From Spirochaetia bacterium (GTDB taxonomy: Bacteria; Spirochaetota; Spirochaetia; SP-2023), in assembly GCA_965225855.1 (NCBI GenBank), contig CBDDCK010000005.1:1248001-1312000 (forward strand): 64,000 nucleotides of DNA, given 5' to 3'. The notes under the pieces were generated by a model. It worked only from the letters and a program-made list of their open reading frames with translations, made no database searches and was not told where the DNA came from. The translations under genes and the position numbers were made by a program. This document shows, in pieces, positions 9,678-55,900 of this stretch. Numbering within the stretch: position 1 is the stretch's first letter; the number at the start of each line of letters is the position of its first letter.

Positions 9678-9720
9678 TGACGTTAAAATGATAACTTAAC
9701 GGGATAGGACGTGATAACTT
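9678..9720 (+). repeat. Prophage left end with two putative transposase-binding boxes
   Basis: TGACGTTAAAATGATAACTT...GGACGTGATAACTT; GATAAC boxes 23 bp apart; exact terminal base uncertain. Confidence 0.65.
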
Positions 9721-9978
9721 GGGATTTTTTGGGACAAATGGAAGGTAAAAATTGGCTTACTTTCCAAAATAAAAAAGTAAAACCAAAATAAAAAAGTAAA
9801 AAATTTTTCATTGCACGAGAAAAAGCCAGAATCCATTTTAAACACCAAGCCAGAGCAAAAACGCTCAAAACCTTAAAAAGCCAAAGCGGTGCTAGGATAA
9901 CCAAACCATGCACCGCTTTTTTTGTGCCTTTCGGCTGAATCCACAAAATGCCTAAAGCTATTCATTGTAGCATTTTAT

Positions 9979-15229: not shown

Positions 15230-16814
15230 ATGAGCAAGAAGAAAGCGAAAAAACAACACAAAACCGAGCCGTTAGCGGTTAGCAACAAAGAGCAAGCGAT
15301 ATACACACCGCCCGGTGTCGATACCGTAGAGGCTATGAATAACGAAGAGATCAGCAAATCCCTTTCCCCTTCCAGGCTGGCTAATTTGGTCAACGAAAGC
15401 AAAAAGGGCAATGGCTTTTCTTTGGTTACTTTGGCTTTGGAAATGCGAGAAGAAGACGCCAGTTTTGGCGGAAACTTGAGAACACGCAAACTAGCAGTAT
15501 TAAACCAACCCCGCACTTTACAAGAAAGCGACAACGCCAAAGCTAATGAATTGATTGCTAAATTATTGAGCAAGCGATATTTTAATAAGCTGTTATATTG
15601 CTTATTGGAAGCTACCGAAGTCGGCTATGCGGTGCTGCGTTTGGTTTGGCAGACTAGCGAAAATGGCTATTGGTTGCCCGTTTCGGTGCATCGAGTAGAC
15701 CCGCGCAGAGTCGGTTTTGACCCCAATACCGAGCAATATTTTTGGCGCAACTTTGACGACCCCGAAGACCGCAAGAATATCATAGATGGCAGCGGCTTGG
15801 AATATATGGTTTATACCCCCGATGAAGTGCTAATGCCCAACAGGGGCGGTTTGGCACGGCTAGCAGCTTTTGCATTTATGGCTAAACGCTTTAGCCTAAA
15901 CGATTGGGTAAAGTTTCTTTCCAGCGTGGGTATGCCGTTGCGTGTGGGCAAGTATGAACCCAGTGCCCAAAGCGAAGAACGCCAGATATTAAAGCGGGCG
16001 TTACAAATGCTAGGCAGCGATAAGGCCGCCGCGATCCCCAAAAACACCGATATTGAATTTTTGGAAGCCAACAACAGCGAAGGCGCAACCTTTAAGTCTT
16101 TGCCCGAATACTTGGACAAGCAAATTGCGGTTGCGGTATTGGGGCAGACTTTGACCAGTGGCACCGAAGGCGGGGGCTGTTATGCGTTGGGGCAGGTGCA
16201 ACATGCGCTTGAATATTTTGCCTGCCGATTGCGTAAGCATTACCGCAGAATTGCAGGAGTTAGTCGAAAAGATTTGCAGTGTAAACTTTATTAGGGACAC
16301 AGCCCCGTATGTAAGCATAAAGACCAAGCTACAAAATTATTTACAAAAGTTAGCCGTAGTGGTAACTACTCATTATAGCAAGTTGGATCAAGGCCTTGAT
16401 CCAGCTTGGAAAGCTATATTATAGCAAGGGGGATCAATCCATTGATCCAATGCGGAAAGATATATTATAGCAATTACAAGGTAAACTCTTGGCAAATTGG
16501 TCGTCCAGATATTTGCCAACAATACGAATTGAATACAAAATTGAAAATCGGAACGCATTCCGTATTTAGTGATTCAGGCAACCAAGACTAGGAGCTAAAC
16601 CAGCTGAACGACAAGGCCCTAGAATACAATTACTAAACAACCAATAAATGATATATTGAAGGCGTTAAATTCTAGCAGAAACTTTAAGCAGTTTCAAAAC
16701 AAGATAGCCAAAATAGCCCTTTCAGAGCCCGATAAGGGGCTAGTGCAAGCATTGACCCTATAGCGGCTGCCAAAGGCGCATTGCTTGGCCAAAGAGATGG
16801 CGATCATGCCTAAA
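15230..16814 (+). pseudogene. Portal protein (Mu gp29/DUF935), 3' part frameshifted and interrupted by 23-bp repeats
   Basis: GMPLRVGKY, LGQTLTS, YALGQV motifs; frame breaks after ~16200; 3' end approximate. Confidence 0.8.
16355..16473 (+). repeat. 23-bp periodic repeat array (~5 units) inside the portal gene
   Basis: Unit starts at 16378, 16401, 16424, 16447, 16470; ends CCAATGCGGAAAGATATATTATAGCAA. Confidence 0.85.
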
Positions 16815-25164: not shown

Positions 25165-26925
25165 ATGAGCGTAGAAGATTTTGGTAAGCGTTGGCAAGCA
25201 GCCCGTGGCCAAGGCCAAGCGAAAGGGCTTGTTATCGCAGAAATGGTAAGCACTTATGGTTGGAGCAAGCAAACTTGCTACCGCAAATTGGCCGAAGCGG
25301 GTTTTCGTAGCAACAAGAAAAAGCGCAGTGATGCGGGGACTAGCAGCATGAAAGAAAACGATTTACTGATTTTGTCGGCTATGTTGCAGGAGGGTTTGCG
25401 CACAAATGGCAAAGCCCAGCTTTTAGTGCCAGAGGCCCGCTCGATTATGGCGATCAATGGTTTTACGATTCCCATTAGCAACCGCCAGTTGAATCGTTTA
25501 CTAAAGCAATTGAAGCTGGATATGCAGAGTTTAAAAACGCCTAAAATCCATAGCCATTTGCAAAGTTTGCACCCCAATCATGTTTGGCAAATAGACCCCA
25601 GTTTTTGCACGATCTACTATCTGAAGAATGGCCAGCAGGTGATTATCGAAGATAGCGAAGCCTACAAAAACAAGCACGACATTTACGAAAAGCTAAAGAA
25701 GAACCAAGCCAAAGTGTGGCGGTATGTAATGAGCGATCACTATAGCGGCTATACTTTTGTGCGCTATTACCAAACCCACGGCGAAAACCAGCAGGTGGCG
25801 TTTGATTTCTTTTTGCAAGCAGCGATGAAGAAAGAACGCAATCCGCTTTGTGGTGTGCCCAAAATCATTTTATGGGACAAGGGAAGTGCCAATACCTCAA
25901 AGGCGATGATTGCGGCTTTAACGGCCTTAGGGGTTAAGGTTTTGACGCATGCCGTGGGCAAAAGCAATGTCAAGGGCAGCGTAGAAAACGCCAATAACCG
26001 GGTTGAGTGTAGCTTTGAGACGCATTTGCGCTTTAATCCTTTGCATTCTGTAGAGGAGATCAATATCGCAGTAGAGGCGTATTTTATTGCCTACAATGCC
26101 AATTTGCTACCAGAGCGGGACAGTCGTTTAGAGCGCAAAGGCAAGCGTGTACGCACAGAGCTTTGGCTAGAGATCAAAGAAAGCGAATTGCGATTTTTGC
26201 CAGAGCTAACGATTTGTAGGCGGTTGTTAGTGAAACCAGCCGAGCAGCGCACTGTTAAAAATGATGGTTGCATAGATTTAAGGCATACTTTTTATAAGCA
26301 AGGCGGTAGCTATTTAGTTGCACCTTTGGGTTTGGTGCCGGGTGATAAAGTACAAGTACAGTGCTTGGCCTATGATGGTGCTGCTATTTTGGTGCATTAT
26401 CGGGACAAGCAAGGCAGGGCACAAACCAGCCGAATAGAGAAGCCTTTGGCGGTAAATAATGCTGGATTTATTGCGAGTGCAGCCGTGATAGGCAAACAAT
26501 ACAAAGTAGCAGATGATAGAAACGAACAGAACCGCAAAAAATTAGAGTCTTTAGCCCACCCAGAAGGTAAAAAGAAGAATGCCAAGCCGTTTGCCCATTT
26601 AAACGAAGGCCAAGGTTTACAAACCCACAACCAAATTATAGCCACAGTAAACCAGTACAACGAAAAACTATTGCATATGCCGTTGCGGGGCAATTCTATT
26701 GGTTTGGGGCAAACGCAAATATACCAAGTTTCATACAGCCTTATCGAAGCCCTAACTTGGCTGAAAAACAAGCTAGAGAGCAATAACTATCAATACAGCA
26801 AAGAGTATGTAGGACTGGTTAAAGGTCAAATGAAGGAGGGCAAAATCGAAGAAGCAGATTTAGAGGGGATATATCAAAAAATAACAAAGGAGGATACAGA
26901 TGTACTGTATTTCAAAGAGGCTTGA
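25165..26925 (+). CDS. Mu-like DDE transposase (A)
   Basis: RSD.G, PNHVWQID, WDKGS, KGSVE catalytic motifs. Confidence 0.9.
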   Translation: MSVEDFGKRWQAARGQGQAKGLVIAEMVSTYGWSKQTCYRKLAEAGFRSNKKKRSDAGTSSMKENDLLILSAMLQEGLRTNGKAQLLVPEARSIMAINGFTIPISNRQLNRLLKQLKLDMQSLKTPKIHSHLQSLHPNHVWQIDPSFCTIYYLKNGQQVIIEDSEAYKNKHDIYEKLKKNQAKVWRYVMSDHYSGYTFVRYYQTHGENQQVAFDFFLQAAMKKERNPLCGVPKIILWDKGSANTSKAMIAALTALGVKVLTHAVGKSNVKGSVENANNRVECSFETHLRFNPLHSVEEINIAVEAYFIAYNANLLPERDSRLERKGKRVRTELWLEIKESELRFLPELTICRRLLVKPAEQRTVKNDGCIDLRHTFYKQGGSYLVAPLGLVPGDKVQVQCLAYDGAAILVHYRDKQGRAQTSRIEKPLAVNNAGFIASAAVIGKQYKVADDRNEQNRKKLESLAHPEGKKKNAKPFAHLNEGQGLQTHNQIIATVNQYNEKLLHMPLRGNSIGLGQTQIYQVSYSLIEALTWLKNKLESNNYQYSKEYVGLVKGQMKEGKIEEADLEGIYQKITKEDTDVLYFKEA

Positions 26926-37438: not shown

Positions 37439-39886
37439 GCGATGATATAAATGTTGGCTTGCGAATCGACCTAAAGGGCGACCTTCAGCAGCAATTGAGG
37501 GGAGTGCGCAGCCAGTTTAGCCAAATGCAGCAGATGACCAAGGTTATGAGCCTTGCGTCTTTAGGCCAAAGCCTCGGCAGTTTAAGCGGGCAAGCACGGG
37601 GATTGACCGATGAGCTAAAGCGACCCTATATGGAATTTGAGCGCGAAATAACTAGCGTCAAAGCTAGAATGATGGGCACTAGCGCAGCTCAATACAAAGA
37701 ACTAAAACAACAAGCCAAAGAGCTTGGGGCAACTACGATTTTTACTAGCCAGCAGGTTGCGCAAGGCATGAACAAGCTGGCCATGGCCGGCTTTGATGCC
37801 GATGAGATCAAAGCCAGTATAGCCGATGTAACGGCCTTTGTGCAGGCCAACGATATTGATTTTGGCACGGGTGCCGATATTGCCACCGATATAGGCACGG
37901 CCTTTGGCTATCAAGCCGGTGAGCTGGGCGAAGTGATGAATGTGCTTACATTGGCAGCCAATTCCGCCAATACCGATATTGGCATGCTGGGCGAAGCCAT
38001 GAAGTACGCTGCTGCCGATGCCAAAAATCTAGGTCTTTCCCTAGAAGAGACAACGGCTATGATGGGGCTCTTGGCCAATGCGGGTATCAAAGGCAGTATG
38101 GCCGGCACCACACTAAAGGAAACCGTCAAAGCCCTAGCCGTACCCGATGATAACGCACACAAGGCTTTAGAGCGACTTAGCATAAAAGTTTATGACGATA
38201 AAGGTCAAATGCGCAGCATTTCCAGCTTGTTGCGTGAAGTAAACGAGGCTACCGCAGGCTTGACGCAAGAACAACGAGCAGCTGAAATCAACACCATATT
38301 TAAAGGAGCGTGGTTCGCGTGGTATTTTGACCTTGATGAGTCAAGGGCAAGATGCCTTTGAGAAATTCCTTGCGTTGTTAGAAAGCTCTGCTGAAGGCAC
38401 GGTGCGAAAAATGCAAGATACCATGGCTGAAAGTTTGGCTGCGGGTTTGGCCGGTATCAACAGTCGCAAAGAGGCCTTGTTTAGCACTATCACCGAAGCG
38501 GGTCGTGAGCAATTAGTTGGTGTACAGCAATTAAAAATTGGCTTTTTCGATCATCTGAACAATATAGCCAAAGAAAACACAGTGCTTGCCGGGCGCATTA
38601 GTTTGGCCACGCAATTGCTTAGCGATATAGGCGGGGTATTGACCTCTAGCGGTGCAGTGCTTTCTACTGTTTTGTCGGGGTTTACTGCGTTTTCAATGTA
38701 TAAAAATCAACAAGCAATGCAAAGTATGGCTGCCAACCCTAAAGGTTTGTTGGGCGGTGTGTCTGCTAGCCAGCCTTTGCCAGTATGGGTGGTAAACAAT
38801 GGATTAAGTACACAAGCTGCTATGCCTACAGCAATCGCTACAGGTGTGGAACAAGGTTTTAGTAAAGGGGCTGCCAAAAGCGGTTTTTGGCATGGTAGGA
38901 AAGGTAGTGCTTTTAAGGGCGGTTTGGTTGGTTTGGCTTTTGGTGGGTTATCTATGGGCTTGGAAGCCTTGGCTATTCGGCAATCGAAACTAACTGGCGA
39001 AGAACAACAAAAGGCCATGAAAAGTGTCTGGAATCGCAATTCTTGGGGGTTGTTTGGCAGTACCGCAGGTGCGGTAATTGGCAGTATGATCGCACCTGGC
39101 CCTGGTTTGTTTATCGGTGGGGCTTTGGGTCAGTTGGTCGGTGATGGCATTGCTGGCAAAATTGAGCACAACAAAACCGATGAAGCAAAGTATCAAAAGT
39201 TTTTAGAAAACAACGATAAAATTTACGGAAGGCAAAATGATAATTGGCTGCCTTTTTTTAGTAAAAATAGCTTGATGAATAAAATTACTAACAATTCTGG
39301 TACACAAAACCAAAATGTAGATAGCTCTTTAGCAAACATAAAAGAATTATTAACCAAACAACCAAAAGCAGGACTATTCAAAAGTGAACTACAAGAATGG
39401 CTAGGCGAAAACATTACAACCCCAGAAGTCTTAGCTAAAGAATTTATGGGATTAGCGGGGCAAATTAGAACAAATAAAGGTTTGAGAAGTAGCTTTAAGG
39501 CAAGCATTGCCGAATATGTTGGCTTAGACAAAGTCGTTTACGATATACAAGCTCCGTTTTTAGAAATGTTTATTTCTAGTATGCCTGAAAGTTTTAAAAG
39601 TTCGGATGCCTTTGCCAAAAATATAGAATCTATCAACCAAGATATTGGCCGTAAAATACAGAGAGGCCAAAATGTCGATACTATCGAGTATATACCCGAT
39701 TTGGCTAAAGCCCTAAACAAATTTAACTTTGAACAAAGCCAAGAGAAAGAAGAAAAAGTAAAGCAAGGGTTAGATTTACAGAGACAAACTTTTACCGAAA
39801 TCCAGCGGGGCAATGACCTTACCGAAAATATGCTGAAAAAATTGGAAAGCCGTTCTTTTGTTTATAAAATTGGAGCAAGTCGATGA
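37435..39886 (+). pseudogene. Tape measure protein (TP901-type), split by a frameshift near 38305
   Basis: AKELG.TT.F, LA.AG, GIKGSMAGT; ORFs 37435-38361 and 38327-39886. Confidence 0.85.
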
Positions 39887-42840: not shown

Positions 42841-43787
42841 ATATACAAACTGGCAAAATACAAACCGATATAACCGATACCAAACTACAGCAATTGGTTA
42901 TGCAAACTTTGTTATCAGAAACAGAAACCAATTTTCGGCCAGAACTAAAAACTTTGCTAGAATCTGGGGCAGTAATACAAGGCATTATTAATGCAGAAGC
43001 GATGTTTTGGGAGCTGAACGATGATATGCCTTCGATTCCCGATGCTTGGGGGCGGGCTTTGTTTGCTATGGCTCTGCCCGTTCGTGGTATTGTGGAAATG
43101 GATAAAGTGGGCTGGATCGCCGCGGCTGGAGCGGCTGGAGTTAGTGCTGGAGTTAGTGCTGGAGTTAGTGCTGTTGCGGCAAAGTTTGGCCTAGCTCTGA
43201 CACTAGGTGTTCCAACAGGCTGGGTTGCATTGGCTTCAGCAGGGATTGGCATACTATTGGTTGAAGGGCTTTATGGTGGAATAGGGGCATTTTCCCCTAA
43301 TTTCAATAGCACAGTAGGACGGGGTCAGATAGGTCAAGCAAATTGGGACGAAGCCATACAAGATTATGGCTCTTATTTCTCTACATATTTAGATAAGGTT
43401 GTGCAGGCCATCGAGCTAAAAAAACAAATGAAGAAACAAATTGAGACATACAAGCTCAATGACCTAAGCGTAAAGTACAATCCAATGGATAAGAAAAACG
43501 TTAAAGTCTTAGAAAACTTTATGATTGGTGCTGTATTGCTAATGAAAACAAAACGGGCAGCCGAGCGCATAGCAGAAGGGCGCAGTGCTGAAGATGCCCT
43601 AAAGTATGGCATTGCGGCTTATCATGGTGTAGATATGAACGATGTAAACAAAAAGTTGGGGCGGGCAGGAGCTTTGACATTTCCAAGCGAAGCCGAATTT
43701 GCCAGCCTAGGAACAAAACGCAAACAGCATTATGACTACATTAATGAGGCGTTTACTTATGCTAAGTCTCGACTAAGCCCACACTAG
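42837..43787 (+). CDS. Protein with hydrophobic Gly/Ala segment and lytic transglycosylase-like C-terminus
   Basis: E...G.GQI, N...GA..L, IAAYHG, Y...  pattern resembling SLT. Confidence 0.5.
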   Translation: MNIQTGKIQTDITDTKLQQLVMQTLLSETETNFRPELKTLLESGAVIQGIINAEAMFWELNDDMPSIPDAWGRALFAMALPVRGIVEMDKVGWIAAAGAAGVSAGVSAGVSAVAAKFGLALTLGVPTGWVALASAGIGILLVEGLYGGIGAFSPNFNSTVGRGQIGQANWDEAIQDYGSYFSTYLDKVVQAIELKKQMKKQIETYKLNDLSVKYNPMDKKNVKVLENFMIGAVLLMKTKRAAERIAEGRSAEDALKYGIAAYHGVDMNDVNKKLGRAGALTFPSEAEFASLGTKRKQHYDYINEAFTYAKSRLSPH

Positions 43788-44011
43788 CCCAACAAGCCGA
43801 AATAGCCATACAAACGCAATTGGGCAATTGGTTTGCCGATGAGAATTTAGGCAGTGAATTACACCAAGCCAACCAATTAAAGAAAACCCGAGAAAACTAC
43901 CTAAAGCTGCGCCAAAGCCTATTAAAGGCCGTAGCGCATTTACCGGTAGAAGTAGAGACTTGGCAGGAAAATAGCGAGTTTCAATATAGAATAACCGAGG
44001 TAAGCCAATGA
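43759..44011 (+). CDS. Mu gp46-like baseplate wedge protein (start possibly frameshifted)
   Basis: W.AD..LGS.L motif; immediately before baseplate J. Confidence 0.55.
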
Positions 44012-44931
44012 ACTTCCCCACATTAGAGACTTTAGAACAGCGCAACCTAGCGCAAATAAAAACCCAATTCCCCGATTTAGAGAGTGAAGGCAAAGGCATT
44101 TTGGAAGTGATGGCACGAATGCACGCCAGCGCAATGCACTTGGACTTATGGTATGATCGACTACCATGCGCAGCAATTGTTTCCACAAACGGCCACGGGC
44201 AAGTTTTTGGACAATTTACTCACATGGCGGCCTTTGCTGCGCATGGTAGCTAAAAAGGCCAAAGGCACGGCTACTGTGGCGGGCAGTTTGGGCTCTGTTA
44301 TTCCAAAGGATAGCGTAATTAGCGCTGACAACGGCCAGCGATATAGTATCTTACAAGAAACTACTTTGAGTGCCCCAAATCAAATAATACAGGTGCAGGC
44401 CAAAGAGCCCGGAGCGGCCGGCAATGCAACCAATGAAAAAGCCAAATGGGAATCATCAATTAGCGGTATGTCGACCAAAGTTTTGGTTAGCGCCACAGGT
44501 GGCAGCAATAGCGAAAGCGATATTAGACCAAGTTACAAAGCAATATAATAACAATAGGTAACACGACATTATACCAATTGGTAAAGCAATATTAAACCAA
44601 GTTAGAAATTGATGTTAGAGCAAGGCGGATTAAGTCCATTATCCAGTTTAGAAAGGTATATGTTACCAAGGCGGAACACGGCCTTACACCAATGTGGAAA
44701 GATATATTGTAGCAAGCTAAAAGAAGCCTTTATTCCAGTATGGAAAGATATATTGTAACAAGTTGGATCAATAGATTGATCCAATGCGGAAAGCTGTATT
44801 ATAGCAAGGCTGATCAATAGATTGATCCAATGCGGAAAGCTATATTATAGCAATTGACATTACAAGCCACAGCTAGTAAAAGCAGCACCCAGCGCGAAAT
44901 CTTAACATTAGGAGCAATAACATGGGCTTAG
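44008..44931 (+). pseudogene. Baseplate J (gp47-like), frameshifted, with middle part occupied by 23-bp repeats
   Basis: FPTL, Q.FP.TA, G..GN, GG...ESD; C-terminus ILTLGAITWA resumes after 44853. Confidence 0.85.
44521..44853 (+). repeat. 23-bp periodic repeat array (~14.5 units)
   Basis: Gap-free 23-bp register with CAA/CAG at a fixed position; ends CCAATGCGGAAAGCTATATTATAGCAA. Confidence 0.9.
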
Positions 44932-45569
44932 ATGTGGCCAAACTTTTGGGTAGACATAGTGTAGCACAATACCGTGCTGCATTGCTAGCGTTATTGCCAC
45001 AAGGTAATCTTTGGCAAGATGAAAAGCAAGATAGCAACGGCCAGATATACCGCCTTTGCGAAGTTTGGGCACAAGAATACGCTAAGCTAGAGGATATTCT
45101 GTATAGTTTGCATGCCCAAACATCGCCACTAACAGCCAAAGAAATACAGCCTTGGGCACTAGCTACCGGTATCAGTTTGCTAGAAAGCAGGCAATTAGCG
45201 CAGCGAATAAAAATCTTAGTAACGTTGATAGGCAGCCAAGCTAGTACACAAGAGGGAATCACAGGTATAGGGAAAATGTTGGGTTATACACTCAAATTAG
45301 AGCGCAACAACAATACCAAAGCACAACAAAGAATCAAATTGCATTCGGCAAGTATGGGGTTTAAAGCGTTAAGCAGCGAAATTGCCACAGAAAAAGTAGC
45401 TAACTTAGGCCGTGTGCGTTGTGGCAAAAGGCTTTGGCCAAATCAATCGGCCATACATACCACAATAGCCGAAATGCCAAAGCACCAAAATATAAGAGCA
45501 GAAGTAAAACTACTAGAGGACTTGCTGCCAGCGCAGTGGAATATAGATACTCGTTATGAATCGTTATGA
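44922..45569 (+). CDS. Mu gp48-like baseplate protein
   Basis: Y..AL.ALLP.G..W and LLPA motifs. Confidence 0.75.
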   Translation: MGLDVAKLLGRHSVAQYRAALLALLPQGNLWQDEKQDSNGQIYRLCEVWAQEYAKLEDILYSLHAQTSPLTAKEIQPWALATGISLLESRQLAQRIKILVTLIGSQASTQEGITGIGKMLGYTLKLERNNNTKAQQRIKLHSASMGFKALSSEIATEKVANLGRVRCGKRLWPNQSAIHTTIAEMPKHQNIRAEVKLLEDLLPAQWNIDTRYESL

Positions 45570-45722
45570 ATCGGTTGATTCAAAAGGGCAACCAGTTGCC
45601 CTTTTGAAATGTTGTACCGGCACAACATTTGGTGGCAAGATAACAACAATTGCAAATTGTGTCAAGTGGTACTTCAAGTAGCTATTGGGTAAAATACCCA
45701 TTCTGGAAAGTAGAAAAAAATC

Positions 45723-45766
45723 GAGTTATCACGTCCGATGGCACAAAGTTATCGCGTCCTGCATCA
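45723..45766 (-). repeat. Prophage right end with two putative transposase-binding boxes
   Basis: Minus strand TGATGCAGGACGCGATAACTT...GGACGTGATAACTC; boundary supported by the second copy at 52912. Confidence 0.8.
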
Positions 45767-45990
45767 GATTGGTAAGGGCTTTAATGTTGATGCAAGCTGG
45801 AAAAATACGCCGCATTCTGTGGGCGATATAAAGCTCAATTAGATTAATTTTTGATGGGGCTACAGTAGCGGCGTAGTCTTTACAACAAGCACCACTGCAG
45901 GGTGTTATCAAAATATGGGCTACTTGAAGCCATTACTCGCCATTCACCCCTTACCCCCGCATTATTTTTTATATTTAATGAAGGTACCTG

Positions 45991-46333
45991 GTGGATAGAT
46001 GGCAGGTGGAGCGTAACTCCTAAAACTGCGAAAAACTTTTAGTTGCCAAAAAAGAAGAAGAGTTTGAACTCAGTGCTCCTGAGTTCGAAGAATTGGCATT
46101 GGCTGCGTAGCAGTCACGGGCTTTGGGAACTTTGCTTCAAGTTCTCGGTAGCTTGTTAGATTATGAAGCTTGCTGTTGTGTATCGCATTGTGACACACCG
46201 GGACTCTTAGCAATGCTGGTAGTAATGAAGCACGTTGGCTTGCCTTTATTGCTATGAGATTTGACAGCTGACTAAACCTGTAGAAGTTTATCTGTCTCCC
46301 TTTGGGACGCGGGTTCGATTCCCGCCACCTCCA
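45991..46333 (+). ncRNA. ssrA: tmRNA, apparently lacking its 5' acceptor strand
   Basis: Tag frame 46045-46110 AKKEEEFELSAPEFEELALAA*; T-arm GCGGG-TTCGATT-CCCGC followed by CACCTCCA. Confidence 0.85.
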
Positions 46334-46436
46334 TAATATAGAGGTTTCGGTTGTTCTACCGAGCCTATCCAGCCCATCTTTTGTTTATTCTTCCCATCTT
46401 GTGCTTCATCTTAGATTCCTCCGTCAAAGGAAATGT

Positions 46437-47366: not shown

Positions 47367-47595
47367 TTGCTACAATATAGCTTTCCGCATTGGTATAAAG
47401 TATTGTTCCGCCTTGGATCAAGGTCTTGTTCCGCATTGGTGCAATATAGCTTTCCGCATTGGTATAAAGTATTGTTCCGCATTGGAGTAATGCCTTACTC
47501 CGCATTGGTGCAATATAACTTTCCCACTTCGATCAAGGCCTTGATCCGCATTGGAGTAAGGTATTGATCGAAGGCGGAGAGATGTATCATAGCAA
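47367..47595 (-). repeat. 23-bp periodic repeat array (8+ units) with an inverted terminal unit
   Basis: TCCGCATTGG-like core ending at 47393, 47416 ... 47554. Confidence 0.9.
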
Positions 47596-48065
47596 GGCAC
47601 TAAAAACCATAAAAATAAGCAGGCCATAGACTTGCTAAAACCCAACAACATCGTAGAAAGCCAAAACTGGGACGACCTCAAATAGGGCCAGTATGCCGAT
47701 GCTTTGACCTTAGCCCACAGCGTCAATGCTGGCATTTTAGACGACTTGCACAATATCTGGCTATATATTGCGGGCCGATGACCCCAACTGCGATATATTG
47801 ATACCGCCCAATGGTTGGCATGGTTGGGTTGGCACGGTTGGCATGGTTGGCGTTGTGCTTGCTATCGCATAGCCTTAAGCCTTTTGATTGGCATGGATTT
47901 TGAACCACCTTACAACACTAACACACAAAAAAAGTGCCCAAACATAAAAAAACTTACAAAAAGCTTGTATAGGCCTTGACGCAACACCCCCCCTAGCAAA
48001 ATGGGGATTTACAGACTAGCCCGTATGGGTTGGTTAATCTTTATCCATTGTTGGAGGTATTGCTT

Positions 48066-50813
48066 ATGTATAAGCTCAAACTACTTTTATTGCCAGTAGC
48101 CTGGCTACTGGCCTTTATGGCCTTGGCCTGCGCCCCACCCGATGACGATGATCGATCTTCTGGGCCGTCTAAGCCGACTATCAATAACGCCATCTACGAC
48201 TTTGCTACGGCGCTGTTAACCGTACAAGGTACTGACTTAAGTCCTACAGAAGCCCAAATCCAAACCATCGTAGTAGATGGCGTAGCCTTAAGTTCCTATA
48301 CTGCAGATGCCAAACCCACTGGGCCAGATAATAGCAATCTGGCAAAAGGTAAGTACCGTATGAAAAGCGATGGCACAGCGATTTGGCTTAGACTTACCGA
48401 TCCACATAAAGCTGCTCTTCAGACCAAGGTGGGTATGAATACCAATGGTCTAAAAAAAGGGTTGCTTACTAGCTCTGGTGCTTGGGCGGGTTTAAATACA
48501 GCCAAAGACTTAACCGTTAGGAATGTACCCGATAAGCAGTCTAAAGTATCCGATGACAATCAGCCATCTAAGCAAACTGAAGACGAACAAGCTGAACAAG
48601 TCGAACAAGCTGAAGAGCAGTCGCCTGAAGCTGCAATTACCCGTGCAAGCTACCATGTTGGCACGGCGCTGCTAACTGTACAAGGTTCTAACTTAAGTCC
48701 TACAACTGCGACCCAAGCCCAAATCCAAACCATCAAAGTATATGACCTAGTCTTAAATTCTTATACTGCAGATGGCACAGCCACTGGGGCAGATAGTAGC
48801 AGTCTTGCAAAAGGTAAGTACCGTATTAAAAGCGATGGCACAGCGCTTTGGCTTTACCTTACCGATCGACATAAAACTACTCTGAATGGCAAGACAGGTA
48901 TGGATACCAATGGTCTAAAAGATGGGTTGCTTACTAGCACTGGTAGTTGGGCGGGTTTAAATACAGCCAAAGACTTAACCGTTAGTGGAAACCCCGAAAT
49001 TACCGGTGCAAGCTACCATGTTGGCACGGCTATCTTAACTGTACAAGGTTCTAACTTAAGTCCTACAGAAGCGCAAATCCAAACTATCGTGGTAGATGGC
49101 GTAGCTTTAGATTCCTATACTGCAGATGCCACAGCCACTGGGGCAGATAGTAGCAGTCTTGCAAAAGGTAAGTACCGTATTAAAAGCGATGGCACAGCCA
49201 TTTGGCTTTACCTTACCGATCGACATAAAACTACTCTGAATGGCAAGACAGGTATGGATACCAATGGTAGAAAAGTCGGGTTGCTTAGCGTTGGCACTGG
49301 TAGTTGGGCGGGTTTAAATACAGCCAAAGACTTAACCGTTAGTGGACACCCCGAAATTACCGGTGCAAGCTACCATGTTGGCACGGCTATCTTAACTGTA
49401 CAAGGTTCTAACTTAAGTCCTACAGAAGCGCAAATCCAAACCATCGTGGTAGATGGCGTAGCTTTAGATTCCTATACTGCAGATACCACAGCCACTGGGG
49501 CAGATAGTAGCAGTCTTGCAAAAGGTAAGTACCGTATTAAAAGCGATGGCACAAAGATTTGGCTTTACCTTACCGATCGACATAAAACTACTCTGAATGG
49601 CAAGACAGGTATGGATAGCAATGGTCTAAAAGATGGGTTGCTTACTAGCACTGGTACTTGGGCGGGTTTAAATACAGCCAAAGGCTTGGCCGTTAGTGGT
49701 AACCCCGCAATTACCGGTGCAAGCTACAATGTTGACACGGCGCTGTTAACTTTACAAGGTTCTAACTTAAGTCCTACCAGTGCGACCCAAGCCCAAATCC
49801 AAACCATCGTGGTAGCTGGCCTAGCCTTAGATTCCTATACTGCAGATTATGCCAAACCCACTGGTGAAAATATTCATTATTTATTAGAAAAAGGTAAGTA
49901 CCGCCTGCATAGCGCTGGCACAGCGCTTTGGCTGAAACTTACCGATCGACATAAAGCTACTCTGAATGGCAAGGACGGTATGGATAGCAATGGTCTAAAA
50001 GATGGGTTGCTTACTAGCACTGGCACTTGGGCGGGTTTAGATACAGCCAAAGCCTTGGCCGTTAGTGGTAACCCTGAAACTGCAATTACCCGTGCAAGCT
50101 ACAATGTTGGCACGGCGCTGTTAACTTTACAAGGTACTCTCTTAGCTAGTGCGACCCAACTGCAAATCCAAACTATCACGGTAGCTGGGGTAGCTTTAGA
50201 TTCCTATACTGCAGATGGTACAGCCACTGGGGCAGATAGTAGCAGTCTTGCAAAAGGTAAGTACCGCCTGCATAGCGCTGGCACAGCGCTTTGGCTTTAC
50301 CTTACCGATGACGATAAAGATGCTCTGAATGGCAAGACAGGTATGGATAGCAATGGTCTAAAAGATGGGTTGCTTAGCGTTGGCACTGGTACTTGGGCGG
50401 GTTTAAATACAGCCAAAGACTTGGCCGTTAGTGGTAACCCCGCCGCAATAGGCGATAGAAGTGAATACACACCTGCCTTGGGTTATTTAGAATTACAAGG
50501 TTCTAACTTATATGGTACTACCCAAGCCCAAATCCAAACCATCACGGTAGCTGGCGTACCCTTAGATTCCTATACTGCAGATGGCACAGCCACTGGTGAA
50601 AATGGTTATAATTTAATCAGTGGTAAGTACCGCATTAAAAACGATGGCACAAAGATTTGGATTCAACTTACCGGTGCCGATACAAATGCTATTAACGCCA
50701 AGCCTGATATGAATACGCCTGGTAAACAAGACGATAAGCTTAGCGTTGGCACTGGTGCTTGGGCGGGTTTAGATACACCGAAAGACTTGACCATCGATGA
50801 TTTTAGCCCATAA
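48066..50813 (+). CDS. Large surface lipoprotein with ~7 tandem ~120-aa beta-rich repeats
   Basis: Signal peptide ending ALAC; repeated ASYHVGTA.LTVQG...WAGLNTAKDL units. Confidence 0.9.
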   Translation: MYKLKLLLLPVAWLLAFMALACAPPDDDDRSSGPSKPTINNAIYDFATALLTVQGTDLSPTEAQIQTIVVDGVALSSYTADAKPTGPDNSNLAKGKYRMKSDGTAIWLRLTDPHKAALQTKVGMNTNGLKKGLLTSSGAWAGLNTAKDLTVRNVPDKQSKVSDDNQPSKQTEDEQAEQVEQAEEQSPEAAITRASYHVGTALLTVQGSNLSPTTATQAQIQTIKVYDLVLNSYTADGTATGADSSSLAKGKYRIKSDGTALWLYLTDRHKTTLNGKTGMDTNGLKDGLLTSTGSWAGLNTAKDLTVSGNPEITGASYHVGTAILTVQGSNLSPTEAQIQTIVVDGVALDSYTADATATGADSSSLAKGKYRIKSDGTAIWLYLTDRHKTTLNGKTGMDTNGRKVGLLSVGTGSWAGLNTAKDLTVSGHPEITGASYHVGTAILTVQGSNLSPTEAQIQTIVVDGVALDSYTADTTATGADSSSLAKGKYRIKSDGTKIWLYLTDRHKTTLNGKTGMDSNGLKDGLLTSTGTWAGLNTAKGLAVSGNPAITGASYNVDTALLTLQGSNLSPTSATQAQIQTIVVAGLALDSYTADYAKPTGENIHYLLEKGKYRLHSAGTALWLKLTDRHKATLNGKDGMDSNGLKDGLLTSTGTWAGLDTAKALAVSGNPETAITRASYNVGTALLTLQGTLLASATQLQIQTITVAGVALDSYTADGTATGADSSSLAKGKYRLHSAGTALWLYLTDDDKDALNGKTGMDSNGLKDGLLSVGTGTWAGLNTAKDLAVSGNPAAIGDRSEYTPALGYLELQGSNLYGTTQAQIQTITVAGVPLDSYTADGTATGENGYNLISGKYRIKNDGTKIWIQLTGADTNAINAKPDMNTPGKQDDKLSVGTGAWAGLDTPKDLTIDDFSP

Positions 50814-51019: not shown

Positions 51020-51100
51020 TTAAGAGAGTCTCTTAATGCCCAACAAGAGAGCCTCTTAATGCCTAATAAGAGATTCTCTTAATAAGAGACCTTCTTAATA
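51020..51100. repeat. Four copies of the palindromic AAGAGAnnCTCTTAAT-like motif
   Basis: Seen directly downstream of the lipoprotein gene. Confidence 0.7.
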
Positions 51101-51328
51101 ACTAACAAGAATTTTTTGTAACAAGATAAACTTTGGCCAAGTCTTGCTTGCCTTTTGGGTGGGGCAAAAACTTGGCTTTATTTTAAATTACCATTAATGA
51201 ACTAATCCAATGGACAATTTAAGATGAGGTAAAAGAGATTCTAAGACAGTTGAGCCTATCTCAAGCCGAGACTCAAAAAAGGTTATGATAAGAGCTTTTG
51301 CTATTAAAAATGGCATTAGCAGTAATCT

Positions 51329-52911: not shown

Positions 52912-55900
52912 TGATGCAGGACCTGATAACTCGATTTTTTTCTACTTTCCAGAATGGGTATTTTGCCCAATAGCTACTTGAAGTACCACTTGACACAATT
53001 TGCAATTGTTGTTCTCTTTGCCACCAAATGTTGTGCCGGTACAACATTTCAAAAGGGCAACCAGTTCCCCTTTTGAATCAACCAATTCATAACGAGTATC
53101 TATATTCCACTGCGCTGGCAGCAAGTCCTCTAGTATTTTTACTTCTGCTCTTGTATTTTGGTATGTTGTTCTTTCGGCTATTGTGGTATGTATAGCCGAT
53201 TCATTTGGCCAAAGCCTTTTGCCACAACTGTAACAATAAAACGACTTGCGTGCAAATTTACTTACTTTTTAGATAGTTACCCAGACTATCAAATCTGGGT
53301 AACTATCTAAACTCTAGCAGCGTTGCTGTACTGCACTCATAACCACCTTACAGCACCGCTGCTAGCCGTCTAAAGCCTGTAATTCGGCTTCCAAACTTTT
53401 TGTTCTTTTTAGCTTGGTTGTTCCAGCCTTTGGCTATATTGGCTTCCCGTATTTACCAAGGCTGAAACAACCAAGCATTGCTTACAGCAATAACAAAACC
53501 CTACTTAATAATTTACAACTTGAATAGCATTGGTTGGGTATGCTAAACCACCCATTACAAATCCTGCTGCTACTTCAAGGTTGTATGCACCATTATTATC
53601 ACGAAGACCAACCTTAACCAGTATCTTCTCGGCTTCCGCTCTTACACTACCGCTTAAAGTAATAAATAATCTGCGTCTATTTACCCCCATAGAACCTGTG
53701 GCTGTGTTTTCACCTGCAGTTGCGTGCTGGGGTAATGTGTATCTCTTATTACCATCACCGGATACAAGCGTCAATTTGCTAAAGTCCCACTCTGCAACTA
53801 CTCTCGGTAAATTGGCACCCTCAATCGATAATATGCCTTCAATAATAGAGTAGAGTACGGTGTTGATTTTGACTACATACCCACTAACGGTAATAGGGTT
53901 ATTGCTTGTGTCTTCAGCGCTACCACCTGCAAATCCTGCTGCTGCTTCCAGGTTGTATGCACCATTATCATCACTTTCACCATTCTTAACCAGTATAGCA
54001 TCGGCGTTCCTTTTTTCACCACCCTTTAAAGTAATCGTTAAGCTTGTTGCACTTGCTGCAGAACCTTTGGCAAAGTGTGTAGTTGAAGCTGGGCTGTGTG
54101 CTCTTAATGGGACACTCTTACGACCATTACCTGCAACAAACCTCAATTTGGTGAAGTCCCAGCCCCACACTGTTGACGGTAAATTGACACCTGTAATCAC
54201 TAACACACTTGTAGCAACATTGTAGGTTGCACGGGTAATTGCGGGGTTACCACTAACGGCCAAGGCTTTGGCTGTATCTAAACCCGCCCAAGCACCAGTG
54301 CCAACGCTAAGTAACCCATCTTTTAGACCATTGCTATCCATACCGTCCTTGCCATTCAGAGTAGCTTTATCGTCATCGGTAAGTTTCAGCCAAAGCGCTG
54401 TGCCATCTCTTTTGAGGCGGTACTTACCTTTTACAAGACCGCGATTATCTGGCCCAGTGTCATCGTCATCTGTAGTATAGGAACTTAAGGCTAAGCCATC
54501 TACCACGATGGTTTGGATTTGGGCTTGGGTCGCACTACCTAAGTCAGTACCTTGTACGGTTAACAGCGCCGTGCCAACATGGTAGCTTGCACCGGTAATT
54601 GCGGCTTCAGGCGAATCCTCTTCGACTTGTTCGACTTGTTCGGCTTTAGGTTGCTTAGGCGACTCTTCTTCAGCTTGTTCGACTTGTTCGACTTGTTCGG
54701 CTTTAGGTTGCTTAGGCAACTGCTTATCTTCGGTTTGCTTAAGCGACTGCTCTTCGGTTTCGGTCTTAGACTGCTGATCTTCGACTTCTTCGGTTTGTTC
54801 AGCTTCTTCAGTTTGCTTAGATGGCTGATTGTCATCGGATACTTTAGACTGCTTATTTTCGGGTACATTACTAACTTCCAAGTCTTTGGCTGTATTTAAA
54901 CCCGCCCAAGCACCAGAGCTAGTAAGCAACCCTTTTTTTAGACCATTGCTACCCACCTTGCCATTCAGAGCAGCTTTATGTGGATCGGTAAGTCTAAGCC
55001 AAAGCGCTGTGCCATCATTTGCAATACGGTACTTACCTTTTTCAAGACCACGACTATCTGGCCCAGTGGCTGGGTCATCTGCAGTATAGGAACTGAAGGC
55101 TACACCATTTGTTCGGCTTCCTACCACGATGGTTTGGATTTGGGCTTCTGTAGGACTTAAGTTAGTGCCTTGTATGGTTAACAGAGCCTTGCCAACATCG
55201 TAGATGGCGTTATTGATAGTCGGCCCAGAAGACGGCGCATCATCGTCATCGGGTGGGGCGCAGGCCAAGGCCATAAAGGCCAGTAGCCAGGCTACAGGCA
55301 ATAAAAGTAGTTTGAGCTTATACATAAGCAATACCTCCAAAAATGGATAAAGATTAACCAACCCATACGGGCTAGTGTGTAAATCCCTATTTTGTTAGGG
55401 GGGGTGTTGCGTCAAGGCCCATACAAGCTTTTTGTAAGCTTTTTATAAGTTTTTTTGTGCTTTTTTTATGTGTTGGCACTTTTTTTGTGTCTTAGTGTTG
55501 TGTGTTAGTGTTGTAAGGTGGTTCAAAATCCATGCCAATCAAAAGGCTTGAGATACCTTGGGTAAAAATTTGTAATACGCTAGACGCAGTCCGGGTGTTG
55601 CGTTTCGTATGATCGTACGAAACATCATGGCACAAAGTATAAGAATTTGGTATAAGAATTTGAGTTTTTTGTATCGCAGTACAGCCCAGTTTTTAGCAAA
55701 CATATTATGATTTTTTTAGAGACTGCCACAGTCTCATTGGAAAATCCCTAGGTTGCCAATCAAAAAAGCTAGTAAGGTTTTCAGTCAAAACCTTACTAGC
55801 TTTTTTCAGAAATCTTACTAGCTTTTTGAGACCGTGGCCCGTTACCATGATATTTTGAAAGCATATTGTTGCCGACAATGACCCATATGCCGAAAAACAA

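Follow-up and report, generated by a model that had tools for sequence, protein, structure and literature searches.

Bacteroidota and spirochaetes contain HU-HIG proteins in abundance, and to our knowledge no function has been assigned to them. Tandem operator and centromere-operator arrays such as lambda OR1-3 and ParR/parC consist of degenerate dyads at a fixed spacing, lie beside the gene of their binder and are often found upstream of a promoter. Sites of 23 bp are known from Tn552. Like lambda OR1-3 and ParR/parC, the arrays described here adjoin the gene whose product presumably binds them, in many cases directly ahead of the promoter. However, the presumed binder is an HU-Ig protein instead of an HTH/RHH protein, and arrays are also located behind the gene and at dozens of loci far from it.

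With the Ig-fused subclade of the HU-HIG proteins (PF14848/PF18291 and DUF4469, PF14734; structure 4FMR), as presented in the parts of Burroughs et al. 2017 (PMC5499826) considered here, our genes share the domains, the lineage-specific expansion, the fast divergence and the patchy occurrence in spirochaetes. Those parts describe no DNA arrays, whereas most of our genes carry a private array of 22-23-bp units and several of the arrays are dispersed genome-wide. REP/BIME sequences and their RAYT, in the sections of Di Nocera et al. 2013 (PMC3733652) used, are likewise species-specific palindromes of 20–40 bp which are grouped, intergenic and present at a home gene and in dispersed copies. The repeats at our locus, here named family A, differ from these by the lack of a GTAG/CGTC tag and of a Y1-HUH gene, by their strict phasing and by long shared flanks. 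As far as the excerpt of PMC8705779 goes, our transposable elements resemble B3-like phages in their TG ends, a 36-kb prophage, a DDE transposase with MuB and 6-bp duplications at five mini elements, and it gives the 6-bp target duplication as the B3 signature. Mini-Mu elements are engineered tools there, whereas here natural mini-elements amplified a family of 112 genes. A description of such HU-Ig arrays was not found in the literature searched, with subscription journals and supplements outside its scope.

The prophage and its surroundings

We analyzed a stretch of 64 kb, here referred to as the window, of a spirochaete genome (G000) that is 94% complete and whose L9 is matched best by Borrelia. 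It contained a B3-like (Mu-like) prophage of approximately 36 kb. The left end (9678..9745, plus strand) was unlike the 29 other left ends of the genome in its outer bases. The right end (45710..45766, minus strand) showed two end sites spaced by 23 bp, and 32 such right ends were present in the genome. The MuA-like DDE transposase (25165..26925, plus strand) was the only rve-family match of the genome. TG ends, DDE transposase and a 6-bp target duplication place the host element among the B3-like transposable phages; the full prophage had no matching target duplication. The ArdC-like, lysis, terminase, portal and gpF genes are located left of the repressor and the transposase. A tmRNA gene at 45979-46336, 200 bp from the right end, was missed by ARAGORN and was the only match of the Rfam scan of the window, which thus gave no structured ncRNA family for the array. 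Contig C3 begins with a 100% copy of window positions 44993-45767.

In total, three family A arrays were found in the window. One of them (locus A31) lies within the baseplate J gene. The portal gene was broken in the same way by a second array (16372..16473, plus strand), which replaces part of the gene and was skipped by one contig of sequencing run X5. A third array (47367..47591, minus strand), of class II (see below), is located between gp46-like and gpF-like remnants, outside the prophage. A lipoprotein gene (48030..50813, plus strand), with the array 439 bp upstream of it, belongs to family f0, the cargo of mini-Mu elements. A 23-bp array of unrelated sequence (family B) was present at 51022..51101 on the plus strand; its home copy lies upstream of an HU-Ig gene at C5:194413. 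A related prophage in the congener G002 contained no array of the family A type.

Structure of the array in the baseplate J gene

The array at locus A31 (44522..44853, plus strand) consisted of 14 full units of 9+14 bp at 44528-44849 followed by a terminal GCAA, all in exact 23-bp register with no indels. This is in agreement with an earlier reading of the window from its sequence alone (the sequence-only reading), which had counted about 14.5 units. In each unit a 9-mer of the form CC-N5-GG is combined with a 14-mer whose arms are arranged as 5-4-5. The two alternating unit types of that reading were seen at the 3' end. In comparison with the closest unit at other loci the units had 0–7 mismatches, random 23-mers mostly 10–16. 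The last four units differed from units elsewhere by 0–4 mismatches and the first seven by 4–6. This degenerate section (44522..44688, plus strand), with 4–6 mismatches per unit and no indels, occurred once in the genome and was present in a second strain as well. The terminal 27-mer said to be common to the window arrays ended all three of them with 0 mismatches and was matched in none of 100 shuffles.

The left junction was bridged by contigs of the runs X4, X5 and X6 of a second study (X4 and X6 being one sample) and the right junction by a contig of X6, so that the array is not an assembly artefact. Reads over the junctions had been the check suggested with the sequence-only reading, and a chimera is ruled out by contigs of two studies that bridge the locus. 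A contig of run X1 reached 30 letters across the left junction, where the bridging threshold would have required one more; both an array allele and an array-free allele were present in this run.

A protein-coding repeat was rejected, since stops occur in all three forward frames, as was A-specific (DGR-like) mutation of the units, since the mutation spectrum was mixed. Around the array no excess of sigma-70 promoters or terminators above shuffles was found. An extended -10-like motif was enriched in the arrays (97/607), but this is one repeated motif.

Replacement of J sequence

The N-terminal 171 codons of J are located at 44008..44521 (plus strand) and the reading frame extends 8 codons into the array. 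The sequence behind the array (44854..44931, plus strand) encodes the C-terminus of a J allele that has diverged and is also present at array locus A38. The sequence-only reading had the J frame stop after GGSNSESD and its C-terminus resume right after the array; the latter is corrected here to that of a diverged allele.

An intact J of 344 aa was available on contig C4, where the tail region occurs once more, with flanks 98% identical to the window. This permitted the comparison with an intact copy that had been proposed earlier. The middle of J comprises 467 bp in C4 and 355 bp in the window, with the left breakpoint after 44521. Since 355 bp stand where C4 has 467 bp, the array is a replacement of J sequence and not an insertion. 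At the left junction, J coding sequence (44505..44521, plus strand) matches a unit in register, here referred to as a pseudo-site; its 17-nt score was reached by 0.24% of random positions. The lost J segment, as seen in C4, contains a pseudo-unit matched by 0 of 20,000 random positions, and the intact J carries a 14-mer of the array that has a background of 3 per Mb. The idea that the degenerate units are partly converted J was rejected, since random-coding controls were equally good in 186/400, 245/400 and 350/400 cases; the last two units were not significantly colinear with J (129/2000).

An apparent frameshift in J near 44144 was absent from the four runs compared and from the C4 copy and is probably an assembly error. 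Single-base indels relative to the C4 copy were found at window positions 37764, 38386, 39045, 43772 and 44144. Those at 43772 and 44144 were contradicted by short-read contigs, so that assembly errors may account for the splits of the tape measure gene and of the J N-terminus. In runs X4 and X6 the J fragment and the array were joined to DNA of the lipoprotein cassette (loose end at 44350), which suggests that both travel as a module apart from the prophage.

Family A across the genome

A weight matrix scan of the genome, in line with the profile search proposed earlier, identified 51 family A loci; the 27-mer was present in 0 of 40 relatives. Outside the studied species neither family A nor family D (see below) had a match in the genome-contig collection or in metagenome contigs, and six single 19-mer matches were found in viral contigs.

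Most of the loci (44/51) flank f0 lipoprotein genes of mini-Mu elements within 1.3 kb, and at 22/51 a flank contained a phage-ORF match. The statement of the sequence-only reading that all copies lie in phage-derived DNA is supported as a strong link to Mu-like DNA; the third window array is outside the prophage though between phage gene remnants. Of the 51 copies, 49 lie outside the full prophage and only two disrupt genes within it; for this reason the disabling of prophage genes, suggested with the sequence-only reading, is not the main role of the arrays, though it may still play a part.

An AAAG-type unit with G(C/T)AA ended 50/51 arrays, the exact 27-mer only 6/51. A fixed terminus therefore exists as a unit type and not as an invariant sequence. 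A run of seven degenerate flanking units was found at the J array alone (locus A20 has two), and the polar decay is no general trait. No indels were present at any family A locus.

The loci comprised 20 near-identical arrays 3' of f0, 17 upstream of f0 (class II) and 14 with mixed flanks, and 37 of them descend from two founder arrangements. The class II arrays, placed between gp46-like and gpF-like remnants, carry inverted terminal units and have both ends fixed, with a middle that varies from 5 to 10 14-mers, which is the pattern of unequal exchange. The family A flanks formed 14 left and 8 right clusters in 19 combinations, two of the left clusters being one flank shifted. Arrays that share flanks do not represent independent insertions. 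Independent insertions with a target duplication, as in MITEs, were not seen; the flanks were common to loci and the junctions were replacements. At four of seven junctions with an empty allele (J twice, cas2 and f0) in-register pseudo-sites were found (p<0.01, in windows picked after the junctions had been inspected); the other three were not significant. At C5:676227-676341, in the interval that separates cas9-cas1-cas2 from a long CRISPR array, a family A array is joined via a 14-bp pseudo-site to a cas2 fragment that arose by duplication.

Further array families and the mini-Mu elements

Tandem-repeat analysis revealed further unrelated intergenic families, namely B (37 loci), C (29), D (45), E (36), F (11) and G (3), and a family H with a 21/43-bp repeat. 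Independent non-coding families peaked at a period of 21–23 (24 families, compared to 9 at 17–20 and 3 at 24–27). Arrays of B, D and E were also present at non-phage sites. Family D had no home near any HU-Ig gene; its 22-bp arrays separate methyltransferase/TPR genes in cassette-like runs at C5:113205-132156 and 769057-784916. Family C loosely resembles G and has no exact HU-Ig home. At C4:313914, C5:1698021 and C5:1700904 its arrays follow fragments of type I restriction genes, beginning 3 bp behind the stop codon, and contain a ribosome-binding-like word. Degenerate intergenic arrays of 22–24 bp restricted to a single locus were found at C1:57296, C4:1722, C5:225662, 728687, 808281 and 1605220.

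Family f0 is species-specific and comprises 112 predicted lipoproteins, with window members at 48030-50813 and 53505-55361. It had no match in three congeners, and Atlas matches were under 0.9. Mu-like ends were present in the genome as 29 left and 32 right ones; they form 16 pairs within 4.5 kb, with copies of 2.3–3.7 kb. All 16 paired mini elements enclose an f0 gene and five had matching 6-bp duplications; a family A array was present in only 5/16, and four of the five with intact duplications carried none. Three more pairs of left and right ends with matching 6-mers lie far apart, which suggests rearrangement. Upstream of f0 genes the families A, C, D and E were mostly mutually alternative. 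Additionally, in 96/112 f0 genes (window 47975-48003, for example) the -10 region and a TTGAC -35 box are separated by DNA that includes a poly-C tract, with C7 in 80, C6 in 15 and C9 in 1, and the promoter is possibly phase-variable.

HU-Ig genes and their arrays

The genome had 14 PF14848 matches, and 18 HU-Ig (PF14848+DUF4469) loci were found by our own profile of five genome proteins, which matches PDB 4FMR at 3e-16. The HU-Ig partner genes are located outside the window. Five dispersed families each have a home copy beside one HU-Ig gene, and HU-Ig home regions were common to 26 E, 29 B and 37 H-type loci; the F home array resembles the F units by eye, below the BLAST threshold. Just upstream of TTGACA-type or similar promoters, arrays were present at o241, o349, o647, o879, o1842 and C5:1103551, each of these six HU-Ig promoters with a different family (E, E variant, B, G, F and H). 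The sister proteins o241 and o349 (100/99) had related arrays; a second sister pair, C1:274 and C5:736661, shared none. Six of 13 HU-Ig genes of the genome missed the array threshold.

The best partner of family A was f21, a divergent HU-Ig paralogue. It has the HU DNA-binding domain and the C-terminal DUF4469 Ig domain of the Ig-fused HU-HIG subclade, with PF14734 at 2e-11 and PF14848 at 8e-7 (29.6 bits, just below the cut-off; 30.8 bits and above it in a second search). The arrays A12, A25 and A42 lie 76–81 bp behind f21 and A41 behind an f21 fragment. Of 11 A-type dyads outside arrays six were at f21, two upstream and four right after the stop. As the f21 copies are near-identical, they provide about two independent sites for the link between A and f21, and the adjacency could stem from shuffling. 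Close relatives of J or f21 with genomic context were not found; four f21 homologues came without context.

In a sample of the class, 13 of 150 other genomes contained the HU-Ig family. A 22/23-bp array was located within 330 bp of 24 of the 33 HU-Ig genes with full flanks, and none was found at periods 19/20 or 25/26. A second set, which leaves out two loci with short flanks and in which three loci share one array, gave 8/9, so that 32/42 genes carried an array and none had one at the control periods, in a sample of loci that includes close kin and near-duplicates and is not independent. Using lag-specific controls, 0/133, 4/119 and 3/117 control genes had such an array, and 5/100 in the HU-rich genome G028. 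The pairing of gene and array refers to spirochaetes. The arrays of these other spirochaetes were degenerate and indel-free, as seen in the J array over its 5' half, and two of them tested for spread were confined to 1 and 5 sites. In three congeners there was no PF14848 match and no family A, nor any excess at 22–23 bp in their 400-kb samples. In the congener G002, which has no PF14848 gene, a separate family of intergenic tandem repeats with units of 20–21 bp was present.

Origin of the array

The J array is probably a stray array of binding sites for an HU-Ig protein, most plausibly f21, which would have reached J by recombination between mini-Mu elements and prophage and not by enzymatic addition of units. 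HU-Ig dimers may bind side by side every 22–23 bp, so that the spacing is kept while the bases drift. Home arrays would have been captured with short flanks into mini-Mu elements carrying f0 and multiplied together with them. They would then alter their length by unequal exchange, swap flanks and join unrelated DNA at unit-like sequence, and the J copy may have entered the prophage by exchange in J/gp48 homology. Together with capture and unequal exchange, such joining would account for the spread, the length variation and the replacements in J and portal. The gradient of the J array could reflect an old degenerate array of home type whose 3' units were refreshed from younger arrays with the same flank. 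IHF, according to the part of PMC8421141 consulted, introduces two bends into DNA that are separated by 9 bp; that this spacing fits the 9+14 unit is only suggestive. In the passages of PMC5499826 available to us, the Ig domain of 4FMR narrows the clasp, making DNA binding there unlikely, and HU-HIG proteins are regarded as unlikely to be sequence-specific factors.

The same paper, in those passages, proposes that HU-HIG proteins intercept parasitic DNA. The HU-Ig proteins and arrays could accordingly form a system against mobile elements, with arrays in or beside DNA of transposable phages and a bound protein that silences them or steers gene-breaking recombination. The breaking of portal and J in the only prophage with a transposase and the phage-ORF flanks at 22/51 loci point in this direction. 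We nevertheless consider it unlikely, as 49/51 copies lie outside the full prophage and 37 go back to two founders, an intact J persists, B, D and E arrays occupy non-phage sites too and the two arrays tested in other genomes had hardly spread. A functionless palindromic minisatellite, hitch-hiking like REP/BIME and shaped by slippage and cassette duplication, with f21 nearby by chance, would explain why the arrays fold better than shuffles (z -3.6), vary in copy number internally and occur in only 5/16 paired mini elements. Such slippage is at odds with the complete lack of indels across loci, the peak of non-coding families at period 21–23, the arrays at 32/42 HU-Ig genes elsewhere and the lack of a RAYT, and it is quite improbable as well.

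It is very unlikely in our opinion that the arrays serve the B3/Tn552-like transposase with its 23-bp footprint as auxiliary sites or arise as its products, being either an enhancer or a MITE-like element. End sites spaced by 22–23 bp, class I arrays 110–200 bp from right ends in seven cases and the inverted terminal units of class II would fit this. However, the array sequence is unlike the end sites, four of the five mini elements with intact duplications carry no family A, the flanks are shared instead of being new targets and the related prophage of G002 lacks the array. We regard as most remote the directional addition of units by a dedicated enzyme (RT, HUH or Cas1-like), which the sequence-only reading had suggested, alongside a short repeat-built mobile element, because of the fixed terminus, the fixed period and the polar decay. 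The gradient at J and the terminal unit type in 50/51 arrays speak for it. Yet this gradient is restricted to one locus of 51, class II arrays vary between fixed ends, and addition of units at one end across loci, as in CRISPR-like or telomerase-like arrays, was not found. That reading had seen no dedicated enzyme in the window, and this extends to the 94%-complete genome, in which we found no reverse transcriptase (RVT_1 profile only), no Y1-HUH transposase (RAYT), no resolvase family and no IS110 (DEDD) or Nop-domain gene, although bacterial Tas proteins may escape PF01798. Two tyrosine recombinases were present among the housekeeping genes, both XerC/XerD-like.

Going beyond the stray array of binding sites that we prefer, the HU-Ig proteins might be orthogonal, sequence-specific phasing proteins. 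The arrays A, B, C, D, E, F and H, each read by its own paralogue, would be swapped onto mini-Mu cassettes of a domesticated transposase and set the expression of the f0 lipoproteins, and the same arrays as recombination hot spots would have grounded the phage via portal and J. We put this forward as a tentative and rather doubtful extension.

Conclusions

New in this genome are the simultaneous dispersal of multiple array families, their placement on a lipoprotein family amplified by mini-Mu and the pseudo-site junctions that broke two prophage genes. At least six distinct pairs of protein and array in one genome would permit a direct test of cross-binding. The escape of arrays to dozens of loci on a very large family of surface lipoproteins multiplied by natural mini-Mu elements, for which we found no counterpart in the literature searched, would represent a route to both the expansion and the control of an antigen family.
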